DNA from: Escherichia phage 04086
DNA: 64,000 nucleotides
Strand: one strand, 5' to 3'
Sequence record: OR842557
The notes beneath the pieces were generated by a model. That model worked only from the letters and a program-made list of their open reading frames with translations, did not search any database and was not told the DNA's origin. The stretch's first letter is position 1. Each line of letters opens with the position of its first letter. Of the stretch, positions 1,216 to 60,644 are shown in pieces. The position numbers and the translations under genes are program-made.

Positions 1216-2487
1216 TAGTAAACATATAAAGGTTTGTAATTGATGTATTGTTACTCACTTCATGAATAACTTCGTCTACATAAAAATCGTATTGGAATTG
1301 GTTTTTAGGGTCGTAGAAATTAATCTTATCACCTGGAGTTAGTTCAAAGTTACCGTATACCTTACAATGCGCGTAGCCGTCGTATTGGGCCATTGTAACT
1401 AATCTATCAGCTTCTTCATATCCATTTCGATAGGTATAATCGGAATATCCGCCAGAGCGAGAAACCAATATACTGTTTTGCCCATCGCCAAAAGTAATTC
1501 GTGTGGCGTTTTTGTCTAAGAAAGAGTGGGCGTATATAGTAGCGTTTTCATATGGCTTTCTGGAATGCTGGTTGGCTTTAGTTAACCATTCAAAATCAAA
1601 TGCGATAGGAGTATCCATATCTTGAACGTATTGGCCTATTAAACGCGGCTCACCTACCACAAAATTAATTGGCTCTTGATTAACCATAAATTCGTAGTCC
1701 ATAATAGAAATACCATCTATATCTTCCCAGACAAATACAAATTTATCAGATTCAACAGCCATACCTACTTCTCGTACAAATTCCATATAACGGTCCATTG
1801 AATCACACCAAGGAACATTAGGAACGTAAACGTTTATCCCGTTCAATGGAGGTGCAAGAAGTGGGCGGTCTTGATAAATAACACCAATCATTTCGGTTAA
1901 TGTTTCTTGAACACTTGGGAAGAACATACGTCCGAATTTAAGATTTTCTAAAAAGTGGATTGGGGCGAGTTGTATTGTTATGATATTATCACCCTTCGAA
2001 TCCACTCCTACAGCAAAGTGTTTACTTCCATAAATTCTTGATTGGGTACGTTCAGAGTTAGCATTCTTAACAGAAATTTGAATAATCTGCTCACCATCCA
2101 TTTTAGTATGAAGGTTCTTTGCATCATAAAACTGAAGCAACCCTTCATTACTACCGTAAAGNGTATTGTTATGATATTATCACCCTTCGAATCCACTCCT
2201 ACAGCAAAGTGCTTACTTCCATAAATTCTTGATTGGGTACGCTCAGAGTTGGCGTTCTTAACGGAAACTTGAATAATCTGTTCGCCGTCCATTTTAGTAT
2301 GAAGGTTCTTTGCATCATAAAACTGGAGCAATCCTTCATTACTACCGTAAAGTCCATCTCGCATTGTTAGAGTAGTAAATGTCGCGCCTAGTTCAACAAA
2401 ACGATGCTCTAACCAGGCGTCATAATCTTCGTAAAGGCGTATACTGATATTAGGAAAGCCTTCACGTTGCATAGTTTTTGAACTCAT
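1127..2487 (-). CDS. 27: Baseplate hub subunit gp27, frame broken by duplicated segment at N 2162
   Basis: ORFs 1127..2140 and 2008..2487 share the duplicated peptide [21 protein letters not shown]; removing the ~191 nt duplicate gives ~390 codons, matching T4 gp27 (391 aa); synteny. Confidence 0.6.
1971..2352. repeat. N-bounded near-identical direct duplication (N at 2162); probable assembly-join artifact
   Basis: Two ~191 nt copies with a few mostly silent substitutions flank a single N inside gp27. Confidence 0.6.
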
Positions 2488-5145: not shown

Positions 5146-5373
5146 TTAGAAATCTTCCTCTTCCTCGTCGTCCATCGACTCCAATTCAGCTCTCTTACCA
5201 GCCAATGCATCACGCACGCTAATATCATCCGAATCACGAAGTTCAGCTTCCTTACTACGAGTTTTGTAATACTTTTCCAATTCCTTCAGACCATCCATAG
5301 TCTGACAAGAACCAATTTTAGCCATGAAGCTTTCAATAGATGCTTCTTGAATAACTTCTTTAAAGGTTTTCAT
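5146..5373 (-). CDS. uvsW.1: UvsW.1 (small acidic protein downstream of uvsW)
   Basis: 75 aa ORF overlapping the uvsW stop; acidic C-terminus; synteny with T4. Confidence 0.65.
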   Translation of the reverse strand: MKTFKEVIQEASIESFMAKIGSCQTMDGLKELEKYYKTRSKEAELRDSDDISVRDALAGKRAELESMDDEEEEDF

Positions 5374-14101: not shown

Positions 14102-14917
14102 TTAAGAAATTCGTGATGCTGCGATTGCAGACAGGTCCGCGAAGGACAGGGTAGGCTTAGAGCCTTTTTCTTCAACTGCTTCTGAAATGTAATTCAGGGC
14201 CGCAGCATCGTCTACATTTTTATTTATAGCGGCTTCGGTGATTGGGTTTTCAACGTCAGACTGACCTTTAACCATTTCAACAATAGCGCCAATTTTTTTA
14301 CCGAATGCATCGGAATAATCCATGCCTTCTACCAGAGAACTAACTTTTTCTTTTTGGGATTCAGTCAGGTCTTTAGTTGCTTCTGTAACAGCAACTTCAC
14401 GCTGTACGTAATTAATATACGCATCGCGCTTACCAACTTCTTCGAACAGACGAGCGGTTTCATCTTTCTGCTCTTGGAGCTCTTCTTCCATTTCAGCGAC
14501 AACATCTACTGCTTCTTCTGGAACAACCACATTGTGTTCAACAAACAGTTCTTTCATACCCATCAACATGGATTCGAACAGTTCGGCTTTAATACCTTTA
14601 TCAACAGCCAGCTGGTTTTCAGCCATCCATTCTTTAGCAACGTGGTCAAGGAAACGACCGGCAGCTTCTTGGATTTTCTTATCGGCTTTTTCTTCAGCTT
14701 CTTCTTTATTTTTCTCGACTTCTTCTTCCGCTTTTTCAGCGATTTTAGCGATGTGAGATTCAGCCAGTTTCACGGCGTGTTGCTTGACGGTAGCTTCGAA
14801 TACAGTGCCGAAAGTTTCTTTTGCTTCCGGAGAAATATTAACTGATTCGAAAATACTGTCAAGAGCAACGGAAGCATCAATATTCTGTGCTTCGGCGATC
14901 AGTTGTTCTTTAAGCAT
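14102..14917 (-). CDS. 22: Prohead core scaffolding protein gp22
   Basis: 271 aa acidic coiled-coil protein (T4 gp22 269 aa) between genes 21 and 23. Confidence 0.8.
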   Translation of the reverse strand: MLKEQLIAEAQNIDASVALDSIFESVNISPEAKETFGTVFEATVKQHAVKLAESHIAKIAEKAEEEVEKNKEEAEEKADKKIQEAAGRFLDHVAKEWMAENQLAVDKGIKAELFESMLMGMKELFVEHNVVVPEEAVDVVAEMEEELQEQKDETARLFEEVGKRDAYINYVQREVAVTEATKDLTESQKEKVSSLVEGMDYSDAFGKKIGAIVEMVKGQSDVENPITEAAINKNVDDAAALNYISEAVEEKGSKPTLSFADLSAIAASRIS

Positions 14918-14944: not shown

Positions 14945-14952
14945 TATTTATA
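14945..14952 (-). promoter_or_regulatory. T4 late promoter (TATAAATA on minus) for gene 22
   Basis: tatttata at 14945-14952, 28 nt upstream of the gp22 start, overlapping the gp21 stop. Confidence 0.55.
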
Positions 14953-15583
14953 ACGCTTTTTTCATGGCCTCTGCGAGAGCCATAAAGGCGTCATCGGCAC
15001 TGGTATCGGTTTCTACCGTTTGTGATTCTGTAATTTGCTTTGGAGTTACATAAGCATCAGGAGCAGATGGTCCCCATACTGCATCAACACCGACGGTTAA
15101 TTTATAACCTTCATTTACACGCTTATATCCTTTGTTGGTTTCGGTTAAAGAACCAAGACCACGAGAACTAACACCAGGAACCCAACCCGCTCGAATATTT
15201 GCGGCTAGTTTATCACCCGGGCCATGGTCACCTTCGATGATACGTGCACGTCCATAAACATCATTACCTTTCCACCACATATCTTCAATAATGATAGCAG
15301 CTTGCATAGGGTCAACGTTAGCACGAGGTGGATGGTTTAATTCTCCTAAAGCTTGTTTAGTAGCAACCTGTTCTGCCATATAATCAGAAACGGCTTTTTC
15401 CAAAATAGGTTTTGGGTAAAGGCGTTTATTACGGTTAACTACCTCTGCTTGCATGAAAATGCCTTCTATATAAAGGCCGGGAGCAAGCCCAGAATTTTTT
15501 CCATCATGAGATTCCAACATAGGAACCCCATCGATAATTTCACCTGGTTGTCCCCAATGTTCGATGAGCAATTCAGGTTTCAT
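14948..15583 (-). CDS. 21: Prohead protease gp21
   Basis: 211 aa (T4 gp21 212 aa); position between gp68 and gp22. Confidence 0.85.
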   Translation of the reverse strand: MKPELLIEHWGQPGEIIDGVPMLESHDGKNSGLAPGLYIEGIFMQAEVVNRNKRLYPKPILEKAVSDYMAEQVATKQALGELNHPPRANVDPMQAAIIIEDMWWKGNDVYGRARIIEGDHGPGDKLAANIRAGWVPGVSSRGLGSLTETNKGYKRVNEGYKLTVGVDAVWGPSAPDAYVTPKQITESQTVETDTSADDAFMALAEAMKKAL

Positions 15584-16011
15584 TAGTTAAGTCCAAAAGC
15601 TTTACGTTTAGAACGGGCTTTCTTACGCTTACGTTCGGCACGTACTTGAGTAGACGGGTTAGCACGTTTGGTTTTAGATGCTTTACGAGCAATCTGACGG
15701 CGTTTTGCTTTAGATAAACCTGTCGTTTGGAATGCGTTACGTTGACGGGTTTTAATATCTTTAGTACGAGTAAGCACACCTTTAGAGGAAACGTGTTTAA
15801 CGATAAATTCGTTAAGAGCCATTGATTCATTTAAAGAACCAAGAGCGATAGCACATTCGATATCGCCTTCAGCAATCATGTTCTCTACAAGATTATTTAT
15901 ATCGCTTTTCTCGAGCGCTTCAGAAAGAGCAGCAAAACGTCCCTGTGCTTCTGGAATTTTGGCCTCTACGCTTTCTAGAGTTAATTCGTAATCATCAGGG
16001 ATAAGGAACAT
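15583..16011 (-). CDS. 68: Prohead core protein gp68
   Basis: 142 aa (T4 141 aa), basic C-terminus; synteny 20-67-68-21. Confidence 0.6.
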
Positions 16012-16256
16012 TATTCGTCGTCCTCGTCGTCATCCGCATCGTCAGATTCTTTTTTGTCTTTCTTATCTGCTTTATCGGATTTTTCGTCGTCTTCGTCATC
16101 TTCGTCAGCTTCTTCGCCTTCAATCATAACGGAGCGAGCAATTTCTGCTTTACGGGCTTCAATCAAAGCGGTTACTCGAGATTCGATAAGCGGGGCTGCT
16201 GCTTTACGAACTGCTACGAGGTCGTTTGATTTAATAGCTTCGATTAAATCTTCCAT
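16011..16256 (-). CDS. 67: Prohead core protein gp67
   Basis: 81 aa with highly acidic C-terminus (T4 gp67 80 aa); synteny. Confidence 0.6.
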
Positions 16257-57580: not shown

Positions 57581-57593
57581 TATAAATACCCGT

Positions 57594-58346
57594 ATGAATT
57601 ATTTAAAAATATATGAATCTTTAATAGAATCCACTATTAAAAGACCTCACATATGTGGGTACACCGAAAAACATCATATTTTACCGAAATCGATGGGTGG
57701 TAGTGATTCTATTGATAACTTAGTCGACCTCACCGCCCGAGAACATTTTATTGCACACCTATTATTGGCACGGATTTTTAAAAATCGCGAAATGTGGTCC
57801 GCTGTATATATGATGGCTTCAACAAGCTTGTCAAACTCTGACAGACATAGATGTTCATCGCATTTGTACGAATTATTGCGAGAACGTGCATCAATATATA
57901 ATTCAGGTGAAAATTCTCCAAATTGGGGAATTAAACGTTCCGAAGAAACACGATTAAAAATGTCAATTTCGAAAATGGGTTCCAAAAATCCAATGTATGG
58001 GATTCCTCAATGCTCGGAACACACCAACAAAATTAGTCTTGGTGTTATTGAAGCTTTTAAAAATCCGGAAATAAAAGAGCGACATAGGCAAAGTGTTTCC
58101 GGGGAACTCAATGGGTTTTATGGAAAGAACCATTCCGAAAAAAGTTTGGAAAAACAACGGAATGCAAAACGGAAAGGATTTCCTTGGGACAATTATTCAG
58201 AATTGTACCCAATTTGGGTTTCATTAAATTGTCCCAAACATCCAACATTCACAAATGAACTTGTTAAATTGGGATATCCTAAAAAGAAACTTGTTCGAAT
58301 AGTGGAAGAATTTAAAAATGAATATCTTCGAAATGTTACGCCTTGA
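57594..58346 (+). CDS. HNH homing endonuclease between nudE and e
   Basis: Motif [31 protein letters not shown]; N-terminus [11 protein letters not shown] paralogous to 43362..44012. Confidence 0.8.
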
Positions 58347-58806
58347 TGAAGGCTGTAAATTGGACTTATATAAGGATACTGAGGGCTACTATACTATTGG
58401 CATTGGCCAATTGATTACTAAGAACCCTTCTAAAGATGTTGCTCGTGCTGAACTTGATAAGCTTATGGGTCGAGTTTGTAATGGTCGTATTACTATGGCT
58501 GAAGCTGAACAACTCTTTAACCGATCGGTTGAAAATGCTCGTAGAGCTATTCTGCGTAATCCTAAATTGAAACCTGTTTATGATGTACTGGACGAAGTTC
58601 GTCGTTGTGCTTTAATTAACATGGTCTTCCAAATGGGTGAAGCAGGCGTAGCAGGGTTCACTAACTCTTTACGTATGCTCCAACAGAAACGTTGGAACGA
58701 TGCGGCAGTTAACCTGGCTCAATCCCGTTGGTATAAACAAACTCCTAATCGTGCTAAGCGTGTTATCGCCACCTTTAAAACCGGCACATGGGCTGCTTAT
58801 AGATAA
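58318..58806 (+). CDS. e: Endolysin (T4 lysozyme, gene e)
   Basis: 162 aa; [11 protein letters not shown], catalytic Glu11/Asp20 context [13 protein letters not shown], and [29 protein letters not shown] match T4 lysozyme. Confidence 0.97.
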
Positions 58807-58811
58807 AAGCA

Positions 58812-58860
58812 GTTTACATCTCCTGTAGTCATGATACTATAGACCTATCAACTACAGGAG
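58812..58860 (+). promoter_or_regulatory. Early promoter stem-loop cassette (GTTTAC-N17-TACTAT inside CTCCTGTAG / CTACAGGAG hairpin)
   Basis: Near-identical copy at 61428-61478; directly upstream of denV. Confidence 0.6.
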
Positions 58861-58868
58861 ATTAAAAA

Positions 58869-59276
58869 ATGACTCGTATCAACCTTACCTTAGTATCTGA
58901 ATTGGCTGACCAACACTTAATGGCTGAATACCGTGAACTCCCACGGATTTTTGGTGCGGTTCGCGAACGTATTGCCAAAGGGCAAGGCTTCTCTGATATC
59001 CCTAAAGACTTCCGCCTTGGTGCAGGGCACGTCAAGTTCTTTTATGTCAAAATTGGATTTTTGTTCTTGCGACAAAATGCAATAATTGAGGAACTTCTGA
59101 AGCGTGGTTACCAGATTCAAAATACCCATGTAGACGTAGCGGATATTCCATTACGGCTCATGAACGATTTCACCCCATCCGAAGCTGATATAGCTTTAAG
59201 CCAAGCTCGATTGGACGAAAAAATTGCACAACGCCCTACCTGGTACAAACATTACGGCAAGGCTATTTACGCTTAA
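58869..59276 (+). CDS. denV: Endonuclease V (pyrimidine dimer DNA glycosylase)
   Basis: 135 aa; [26 protein letters not shown] and C-terminal QRPTWYK.YGKAIYA match T4 DenV. Confidence 0.93.
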
Positions 59277-59318
59277 TTAAACCCGTGATAGAATACTTCT
59301 ATCAACTTAAGGAATAAT

Positions 59319-59678
59319 ATGAAAACTTACCAACAATTTATTACTGAATCTACTCAGCGCATTAACGAAGCTATGTCTCCTGAACAGTTGGCTAAAGCTA
59401 AAGAAGGGCTGAACCCGTCCGAAGTCTTTAAAGTTACAGGTAAAGATTTCTCTTCCATGGCCACTAACCAAAGTCTGGCTAAAGAACTTAAATCTAAATC
59501 TAACTTCATTCATGCTACATGGAATGGTGATTCTCTTACTTCAATAAGTGTGTACAATAAAAAAGGTCTCCTTAAGAGTTCTTATGGCGCGGATGCCATC
59601 CGTGTTTCTAAATCAGATTGGCATAAAAACACTACTAAAGCAGAAAAACCTCATAACCCGGCACTTGACCATCTTTAA
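59319..59678 (+). CDS. Internal-protein-like protein with capsid targeting sequence
   Basis: N-terminus MKTYQQFITE; 119 aa; RBS taaggaataatATG. Confidence 0.6.
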   Translation: MKTYQQFITESTQRINEAMSPEQLAKAKEGLNPSEVFKVTGKDFSSMATNQSLAKELKSKSNFIHATWNGDSLTSISVYNKKGLLKSSYGADAIRVSKSDWHKNTTKAEKPHNPALDHL

Positions 59679-59686
59679 GGAATAAT

Positions 59687-59944
59687 ATGAAAACTTACCA
59701 GCAATTTATCGCAGAATCCACTTTAGTTTCTAAACGTTGGAATATGATTGTAAACGTTAAACCTTCCGGCACTGAAGTTTCTATGGCCGACCCTAATGAT
59801 GACGAACTTGAGCACGCTTTTAGCTCTAAAGAAACTGACGAGAAAGTGGTTAAGCAACTGGTTGCTGATGCAGACCAACTTCGTAAAGTAGCAGATGTTG
59901 TTAAGCTGTTTACTAAGAAAGGTTTTAAACACGAAGAGCGTTAA
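59687..59944 (+). CDS. Internal-protein-like protein with capsid targeting sequence
   Basis: N-terminus MKTYQQFIAE; 85 aa; same RBS context as 59319. Confidence 0.6.
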   Translation: MKTYQQFIAESTLVSKRWNMIVNVKPSGTEVSMADPNDDELEHAFSSKETDEKVVKQLVADADQLRKVADVVKLFTKKGFKHEER

Positions 59945-60101
59945 TTAGCATTTTAAATGGGAGCAAGCTGGACCTCGCAATTCTGTGAGGGACTCCCGCC
60001 AACCTGTAATAAGGTCGAGCCCAAGTGCGGTAATGGGTAAATGCAGAAAGGGACGAATTAATGTGCCAAGGAATGGCCCCTCCACTTAAAAAGAGACAAT
60101 T
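59945..60101 (+). other. GC-rich structured non-coding segment (candidate small RNA or leader)
   Basis: 157 nt without ORF; nested inverted repeats (gggag..ctccc, cctcg..tgagg); GC content well above flanks. Confidence 0.2.
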
Positions 60102-60644
60102 ATGAAATTTTTAACCGGTAGTTATCTATCCCTGATGAATGCTTTTGCAAACCATTCTGATGCTAGAGTAGAACACATTTGTAATAGTGGGTTTTATGTA
60201 CCTGATTCACAAACCCTGTTTAAAGAATGCTGCACCTTAAAACTTGATGGTGGGCGCCAATCCGGTAAAACTAAAGCAGTATCCATTTTTGCCACAGAAT
60301 GGTTAGCTAATGGCGGCTCTATTGTTATTTTATCTAATAACACGGCATATGCCAATGTTTCGGCTAGTGCAATCCGAAAGGAATATTTTAATAACCATAC
60401 AGAAAGTATTAAGTACCGTTTGTACACTGATTCTGTTCGTAGTTTTATTGGTAATACTGCATGCAAATTCCGTGGATTATCGCTTTCACGTGTTCTGTAT
60501 ATAATTGATGAGCCTGTTAAAACACCTAATATGGATAAGATTTATGATGCCCATATAAAGGTGGTGCAACATTGCTGTCATGCATCATGTGTCGAAACCA
60601 ATCAAACTGCTCGTCCTCTGTTCTTTGTGATAGGAATGCAATGA
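60102..60644 (+). CDS. Small P-loop NTPase-like protein
   Basis: 180 aa; Walker A-like GGRQSGKT and Walker B-like VLYIIDEP. Confidence 0.45.
   Translation: MKFLTGSYLSLMNAFANHSDARVEHICNSGFYVPDSQTLFKECCTLKLDGGRQSGKTKAVSIFATEWLANGGSIVILSNNTAYANVSASAIRKEYFNNHTESIKYRLYTDSVRSFIGNTACKFRGLSLSRVLYIIDEPVKTPNMDKIYDAHIKVVQHCCHASCVETNQTARPLFFVIGMQ

Follow-up and report, generated by a model that had tools for sequence, protein, structure and literature searches.

In T4, the genes around the endonuclease V gene denV run, along transcription, nudE, e, ipIII, ipII, denV, and vs.8. In the stretch of DNA analysed here, the 64,000 nucleotides of Escherichia phage 04086 (sequence record OR842557) that we call the window throughout, the + strand order is e, denV, IPa, IPb, and vs.8 (Table 1), with two genes that start like those of T4 internal proteins lying downstream of denV, whereas those of T4 lie between e and denV. 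A preliminary description made from the letters alone had noted this difference in order, which is real, and had taken it to suggest a local rearrangement and a replacement of the injected protein set. The question is whether IPa and IPb are ipII and ipIII displaced across denV or something else. In this study, we show by sequence comparison that IPa and IPb carry a capsid-targeting sequence (CTS) but are non-orthologs of T4 IPII and IPIII, that they are unrelated to each other and represent new Ip types, and that Dhakavirus has two independent internal protein (IP) cassette slots, e/denV and denV/vs.8, nothing having moved. Moreover, we consider it probable that the two are unrelated accessory internal proteins, held as self-contained cassettes in the denV/vs.8 slot, which would be packaged, cut by gp21, injected, and directed against host defence.

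Table 1. Features of the window and copies of the RNA-like element in other phages
Feature	Position	Strand	Remarks
gp22 scaffold	14105-14917	-	
gp21 prohead protease	14951..15583	-	needed for CTS targeting/cleavage
gp68, gp67	15586-16256	-	
Third CTS gene	46301..46573	+	90 aa, MKTYQEFIAE; phrog_7673 internal head protein, E 2e-56
Fourth CTS-like gene	48731..49195	+	154 aa, MKTYNEFLTE; phrog_2280, unknown function; after tRNA genes
e (T4-type lysozyme)	58318..58806	+	
e/denV junction	58807..58868	+	site of ipIII, alone or with other IP genes, in relatives
denV (endonuclease V)	58869..59276	+	central part is an allele unlike WG01, PSD9, JS98; matches ABTNLS3
T4-early-type promoter-like site	59266..59294	+	TTTACG, 17 nt, TAGAAT, upstream TG
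35-nt repeat, copy 1	59307..59341	+	Shine-Dalgarno, ATG, first 8 CTS codons
IPa	59319..59678	+	119 aa, MKTYQQFITE; CTS-bearing internal-protein candidate
35-nt repeat, copy 2	59675..59709	+	WG01 differs at 6 positions; rest of IPb nearly identical
IPb	59687..59944	+	85 aa, MKTYQQFIAE; CTS-bearing internal-protein candidate
Conserved RNA-like element	59959..60038	+	core 60002-60033; constant right border of the slot
vs.8 homolog	60102..60644	+	phrog_1488; conserved gene right of the slot
Element copy, T4	L004:4330-4413	-	
Element copy, Bp7	L006:8346-8430		
Element copy, navn	L012:~1465-1550		
Element copy, Ivi	L013:~1470-1545		

The coordinates, sizes, and N-termini first reported for the two adjacent open reading frames are correct. 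Eight to nine of the ten CTS residues are the same as in MKTYQEFIAE of T4 IPII and IPIII. In T4, the established gp21 cleavage motif is an (L/I)-x-E that closes the CTS, and it is present as I8-T9-E10 in IPa and as I8-A9-E10 in IPb; the predicted mature proteins, cut after Glu10, would have 109 aa and a pI of 9.5 (IPa) and 75 aa and a near-neutral pI of 6.1 (IPb). Compared with WG01, PSD9, and ABTNLS3, IPa shows 12-14 synonymous codon differences and 1 non-synonymous one, and IPb differs from its relatives by 4 synonymous and 2 non-synonymous codons, both of the latter inside the CTS. By these counts, both genes are real and subject to purifying selection. IPa is a member of phrog_3966 (unknown function; E 7e-26), the profile of which IPb matches through its first 16 residues only, and Pfam has no family for either. 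The protein-cluster search gave one 90% cluster apiece. Homologs of IPa were retrieved from 12 Dhakavirus records (>90% identity) and from 78 records of Mosigvirus type (<60%; about 27-37% among the matches listed). In contrast, IPb is found in 6 phage records only, which amount to 5 distinct phages, and an exhaustive HMMER search with mature IPb against 1.84 billion representatives returned only 2 clusters, the second of which (P0003) is 50% identical, 88 aa long, and starts with MKTYQEFITE. By these searches, IPb is a rare family with one distant metagenomic relative beyond the five sequenced phages. AlphaFold, run on single sequences, gave models of pLDDT 63.7 (IPa) and 62.1 (IPb), too low for interpretation, and when the IPa model was compared by Foldseek with PDB and viral libraries, the hits were its own family or noise (E >0.5; best PDB E 0.67), with no fold match to IPI* or any PDB entry.

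The first impression that the two proteins do not resemble T4 IPII and IPIII was borne out by alignment. In BLASTP comparisons with T4 IPI, IPII, and IPIII and with the IPIII of JS98 and WG01, convincing similarity is confined to the first ~12 residues of IPa and IPb; longer extensions (up to 71 columns) are of low identity, with E-values no better than those of CTS-only matches, and the mature parts show no meaningful BLASTP similarity. The IPIII proteins of JS98 and WG01, in contrast, align with T4 IPIII over their full length at 86-87% identity. What IPa and IPb share with T4 IPII and IPIII is the 10-residue CTS, the I-x-E gp21 motif, small size, and the e/denV neighbourhood, and they are likewise dispensable at the population level, the denV/vs.8 slot being empty in Bp7 and VR5. 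They differ from them in lying in that slot and not in the e/denV slot, as well as in mature parts without detectable similarity, and mature IPb is not basic, unlike T4 IPI, IPII, and IPIII. With T4 IPI/IPI*, the GmrS/GmrD inhibitor, they presumably have in common the logic of a CTS-targeted, gp21-trimmed, and injected protein acting against a defence on modified DNA, but the 19-residue propeptide of IPI is longer than theirs and its sequence is unrelated.

We propose that the CTS, MKTYQQFI(T/A)E, would direct IPa and IPb into the prohead scaffolding core, where gp21 would cut after Glu10 at the I-x-E motif and leave a basic and a near-neutral protein among the packaged DNA, with STQRINEAMSPEQLAK (IPa) and STLVSK (IPb) as the predicted new N-terminal peptides. 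Both proteins would then be ejected into the cell together with the DNA and, by analogy with T4 Ip1, Ip2, and Ip3, would most likely neutralise host defence against incoming modified DNA. Genes for the protease and the scaffold are present in the window, gp21, gp22, gp68, and gp67 being 99-100% identical to those of Bp7. The T4 CTS is sufficient for loading even foreign proteins into the prohead core (PMC3012670), and the T-even internal proteins are a diverse set with only the CTS in common (PMC3012670, citing Repoila 1994). Ip1, Ip2, and Ip3 of T4 are inhibitors of GmrSD type IV restriction enzymes, a different one in each case, the Ip types reported number more than 10, and T2 and T6 are naturally without ip3 (PMC12373910). 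It is from the CTS and from this analogy that we infer packaging, cleavage, injection, and an anti-defence role for IPa and IPb. All three T4 internal proteins being specific factors against restriction (PMC12373910), any new Ip family becomes a candidate for probing an undescribed host defence, and the rarity of IPb makes it a good test case. JS98-type phages make hydroxymethyl-dCMP and lack glucosyltransferases (PMC2993671), so that the defences relevant to them may differ from those facing T4. It is conceivable, if on balance doubtful, that IPa and IPb are injected inhibitors of defences of other than the Ip1, Ip2, and Ip3 types and serve as the main DNA protection of a phage without ipIII, in a slot bounded on the right by an undescribed structured RNA of several phage families. 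In that case their targets may be, for example, nucleases against the non-glucosylated hydroxymethylcytosine-type DNA of the JS98-group phages.

Among the alternatives, the one that survives best is that the shared N-terminus is a by-product of recombination of a promoter/RBS/5′ cassette, IPa and IPb being cytoplasmic early proteins that are neither packaged nor injected. We regard this as unlikely, although several observations would fit it. An early-type promoter lies directly upstream, and the canonical late promoter TATAAATA was not found directly upstream of IPa or IPb, the nearest one on the + strand being at 57581, 1.7 kb upstream of IPa; with no adjacent late promoter and an early-type promoter abutting IPa, expression during head assembly is assumed in our proposal. 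The 5′ patch of IPb shows clear signs of exchange, Glu10 is missing from the IPa homolog of RB69, and UvsW.1, which is encoded in the window and is not an internal protein, has the loosely CTS-like N-terminus MKTFKEVIQE. However, the complete 10-residue CTS and its cleavage motif are retained in all Dhakavirus copies of IPa and IPb and in P0003 despite 50% divergence elsewhere, the T4 CTS suffices to encapsidate foreign proteins (PMC3012670), and late transcripts might read through from the promoter at 57581. That the two proteins are packaged but have a structural or DNA-condensing function, neutralising charge in the head, and no anti-defence role is more improbable still. Mature IPa is indeed basic, like T4 IPII and IPIII, and lysines of the T4 internal proteins touch DNA phosphates (PMC3012670), but the pI of 6.1 predicted for IPb does not suit such a function, nor does the dispensability of genes whose slot is empty in Bp7 and VR5, and each of the three T4 internal proteins has a specific anti-restriction target (PMC12373910).

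The reading of IPa and IPb as injected accessory proteins carried in cassettes also has to be seen against the occupancy of the two slots in related phages (Table 2). By megablast, the window belongs to the genus Dhakavirus, in the JS98/WG01 group, with ~95% nucleotide identity to WG01, PSD9, UGJNEcP3, and Bp7. The 1.8-kb e-denV-IPa-IPb stretch matched no megablast record as one colinear piece, the best five records covering 84-85% of it in three pieces. The same two genes, in the same order, occupy the denV/vs.8 slot of WG01 (ORF115 and ORF114), PSD9, ABTNLS3, E33, and LQ5 at 98-99% amino acid identity (99% for IPa, 98% for IPb), where they are annotated merely as 'hypothetical protein'; unlike the window, these WG01-type phages also have an occupied e/denV slot, with ipIII alone or in the company of other IP genes. 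Two WG01-type hypothetical proteins, one of PHROG 3966 and the other an unclassified orphan, can thus be regarded as CTS-bearing internal-protein candidates. ESCO10 has the same e-denV-IP-IP order as the window. In the Mosigvirus RB69, ORF123c, of the PHROG 3966 family, is a 34% homolog of IPa in the same slot with a CTS-like N-terminus, but it has Ala and not Glu at position 10 and its neighbours are the CTS ORFs 125c and 124c. An alternative cassette for the denV/vs.8 slot is Ip7 (ip7 of VR5 and VR7, orf112 of JS98; PHROG 2667 'internal head protein'), the mature sequence of which is unrelated, so that ESCO10 combines IPa with Ip7 where the window combines IPa with IPb. Ip7 lies in the e/denV slot in VR5 and in the denV/vs.8 slot in JS98 and ESCO10, and its presence in different slots in different phages means that cassettes do move between slots.

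Table 2. Occupancy of the two slots beside denV in the window and in other phages
Phage	e/denV slot	denV/vs.8 slot
This window	empty	IPa + IPb
PSD9	ipIII	IPa + IPb
WG01	132-aa CTS protein + ipIII	IPa + IPb
ABTNLS3	132-aa CTS protein + ipIII + ipII-like gene	IPa + IPb
JS98	ipIII + orf114	Ip7
VR5	ip3 + ip7	empty
Bp7	empty	empty
ESCO10	empty	IPa + Ip7
Ec2-ASingh	empty	IPa
RB69 (Mosigvirus)	ORF127c	ORF125c, 124c, 123c (CTS-type N-termini)
Virsaitis27 (Winklervirus)	ORF131	189-aa internal head protein
T4	ipIII + ipII	empty

The local rearrangement first suggested has to be given up, the denV-IPa-IPb-vs.8 order being common to close relatives and ipIII/ipII orthologs coexisting there with IPa and IPb in the other slot. 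Two adjacent CTS genes beside denV, on the side opposite to T4, might suggest that ipII and ipIII had diverged and been relocated across denV to become IPa and IPb, but this is very hard to credit when similarity to T4 IPII and IPIII ends at about residue 12, when ipIII (87% identical to that of T4) and an ipII-like gene are found in the e/denV slot of WG01, PSD9, JS98, and ABTNLS3, when WG01, PSD9, and ABTNLS3 have ipIII before denV and IPa and IPb after it, and when a clean deletion between repeats of a promoter sequence, and neither an inversion nor a transposition, accounts for the e/denV junction. The suggested replacement of the injected protein set holds only loosely, in that ipIII is absent from the 64 kb and the four CTS genes there are unlike those of T4, which fits the long-known internal-protein polymorphism of T-even phages (PMC3012670; PMC12373910). 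Across WG01, PSD9, JS98, ABTNLS3, VR5, Bp7, ESCO10, Ec2-ASingh, RB69, and T4, IPa and IPb behave as small accessory genes whose presence varies among relatives. By this comparison, the arrangement of IPa and IPb is ordinary for the phage group, is already in public genomes, and is an instance of known cassette variation. It is a further clear case of cassette shuffling in two slots around denV, and of modest value.

The borders of both slots point to how such cassettes may be exchanged. Compared with PSD9, WG01, and JS98, the window has a clean deletion of ipIII with its endpoints in a ~23-nt direct repeat, GATAAAAGnnGTTTACATCTCCT, which is the -35 region of two early promoters. Within the resulting e/denV junction lie a 10-bp inverted repeat (58819-58828 and 58852-58861) and, at 58813-58840, a site resembling an early promoter, and Bp7 and several other Dhakavirus phages share it as a single colinear match. 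In the denV/vs.8 slot, homology among the window, WG01, and JS98 extends through the end of denV, the promoter-like site, the Shine-Dalgarno sequence, and the CTS codons, then breaks, and resumes after the IP genes in the conserved non-coding element before vs.8. The promoter-like site, which overlaps the end of denV directly upstream of IPa and is common to WG01 and JS98, forms the left border of the cassette; an early-promoter scan gave 8 sites against 9.0 expected in shuffled sequence, which is no excess, and no stem-loop was seen at the IPa promoter. It has been described that promoter/stem-loop cassettes bring about the shuffling of modules in T4-type genomes (PMC2839356, PMC4122927), and the alignments suggest that the breakpoints of the slots follow this pattern. 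Reminiscent of the promoter-early stem-loop (PeSL) cassettes (Arbiol 2010; Comeau 2014) are the early promoter-like sites of TTTAC(A/G)-N16/17-TA..AT type at the cassette borders, the inverted repeat at the e/denV junction, and deletion endpoints inside a repeated promoter sequence; unlike in PeSL cassettes, conserved CTS codons and the downstream RNA-like element here also serve as homology. The breakpoints suggest that cassettes would be gained, lost, and swapped by recombination between an early promoter, Shine-Dalgarno sequence, and CTS on the left and the conserved non-coding element on the right, and recombination at these borders would leave relatives with different combinations.

The identical RBS context reported for the two open reading frames is likewise real and corresponds to a 35-nt string, TTAAGGAATAATATGAAAACTTACCARCAATTTAT, of which the window contains exactly two copies (59307 and 59675), with 0 expected in 100 shuffles. 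Six differences of IPb from WG01 cluster in the RBS and the CTS (GGAATAAT versus GGCTTAAT, plus Q6 and A9), and the remaining 225 nt of IPb are almost identical to WG01. This suggests a short conversion patch in the lineage of the window, to which the identical RBS context is specific, since the same patch differs in WG01.

The neighbouring genes have features of their own. The denV gene is a mosaic, the first ~80 nt and the last ~100 nt of which are near-identical to WG01, PSD9, and JS98, and the part at ~58950-59190 is a divergent allele with 3 codons fewer that matches Salmonella phage ABTNLS3. An insertion between nudE and e, at 57594-58346, is a gene for an HNH/NUMOD3 homing endonuclease (250 aa, phrog_655), of which the last 29 nt run into the start of e; WG01, PSD9, JS98, Bp7, VR5, and ESCO10 have no such insertion at this position. 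The sole late-promoter consensus near the locus (57581-57588) lies just upstream of this gene.

Besides IPa and IPb, the window contains a 90-aa and a 154-aa CTS gene (Table 1), and none of the four is like T4 IPI, IPII, or IPIII. The 90-aa gene lies downstream of gene 57A (about 45.4-45.5 kb), in the region of T4 ipI. A 75-aa ORF at 5146-5373 was considered as a fifth CTS protein and rejected, being UvsW.1 (phrog_1143). By tblastn, ipIII was not found within the 64 kb of the window, in a genome that is ~100 kb longer, and its absence would not be unusual. In the Bp7 record (NC_019500; loci L006 and L009-L011), no ipIII and no CTS-bearing ORF was found in the 166,996 of 168,066 bases scanned. 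This record has many split genes, and where gene 57A at its end meets the e.6-type genes at its start it lacks the CTS-gene/tRNA region of the window; its lack of internal-protein genes may reflect assembly quality, which makes it a weak precedent. In the window itself, the two copies of a perfect 206-nt direct repeat (48432-48846) stand on either side of an 'nnn' (48638-48640), with the 5′ end of the 154-aa CTS gene present twice; this has the look of an overlap left unmerged when two contig ends were joined, and not of biology. Before it, after tRNA-Met and tRNA-Arg, ~360 nt at 48072-48430 are unannotated, with a T-arm-like string, GGGTTCGAATCCCGG, near 48380 and no call by ARAGORN or Rfam; they might be T4-like small stable RNAs (rnaC, rnaD) or a decayed tRNA.

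The right border of the denV/vs.8 slot, if confirmed as an RNA element, could matter more than IPa and IPb. In Bp7, VR5, and T4, this RNA-like element stands directly after the denV stop codon. By blastn, the 80-nt stretch after IPb is present in 1,067 phage records, including T4-likes, Vequintavirus, and ~46-kb phages, and unrelated phages, among them Ivi (45 kb) and the Vequintavirus navn, have a 45-49-nt core at 85-94% identity, which invariably lies in the sense orientation in DNA without annotation. The full element was found in 38 of the 39 IMG/VR loci (L015-L053), the exception, L020, being without the rest of the core. An invariant ~32-nt core, ACCTGTAAnAAGGTCGAGC(n4-5)GCGGTAA, is preceded by a hairpin in which pairing is kept with entirely different sequences between phage groups: the outer and inner stems are GGGAG...CTCCC and CCTCGC...GTGAGG in this window, GGGAA...TTCCC and CCTCAT...ATGAGG in T4, GGGG...CCCC and CACAT...ATGTG in navn, and GGAAC...GTTCC and CTACG...CGTAG in the IMG/VR locus L043. 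RNAalifold showed two-sided changes at all four outer hairpin pairs, and at one position of the closing stem all 43 distinct sequences have a canonical pair, of five types in all. One-nucleotide indels occur in the core of RB69-type copies, which argues against a protein-coding role for the element. It had no match in Rfam 15 at E up to 10, its MFE z-score was not significant, and the literature search found no paper containing its sequence. Bacterial copies were considered and rejected: 33 matches to an 18-mer, none with the rest of the core, compare with ~70 expected by chance in 596 Gb, and bacterial species representatives held no true copy.

In T4, the element lies under what are annotated as the first ~41 codons of vs.8 (MRDSRQPVIRSSPSAVMGK...; NC_000866 64253-64912; L004:4290-4413, - strand), and the vs.8 start in the window and in ESCO10 is the equivalent of the internal MRTFLTG methionine of T4. 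From this comparison, the T4 vs.8 start is probably annotated too far upstream, the true one being the methionine of MRTFLTG. A second small hairpin, GCCA-AGGAA-TGGC (60065-60077), lies between the element and the vs.8 start; T4, RB69, the Winklervirus phage, and Dhakavirus all keep it and vary in the loop only.
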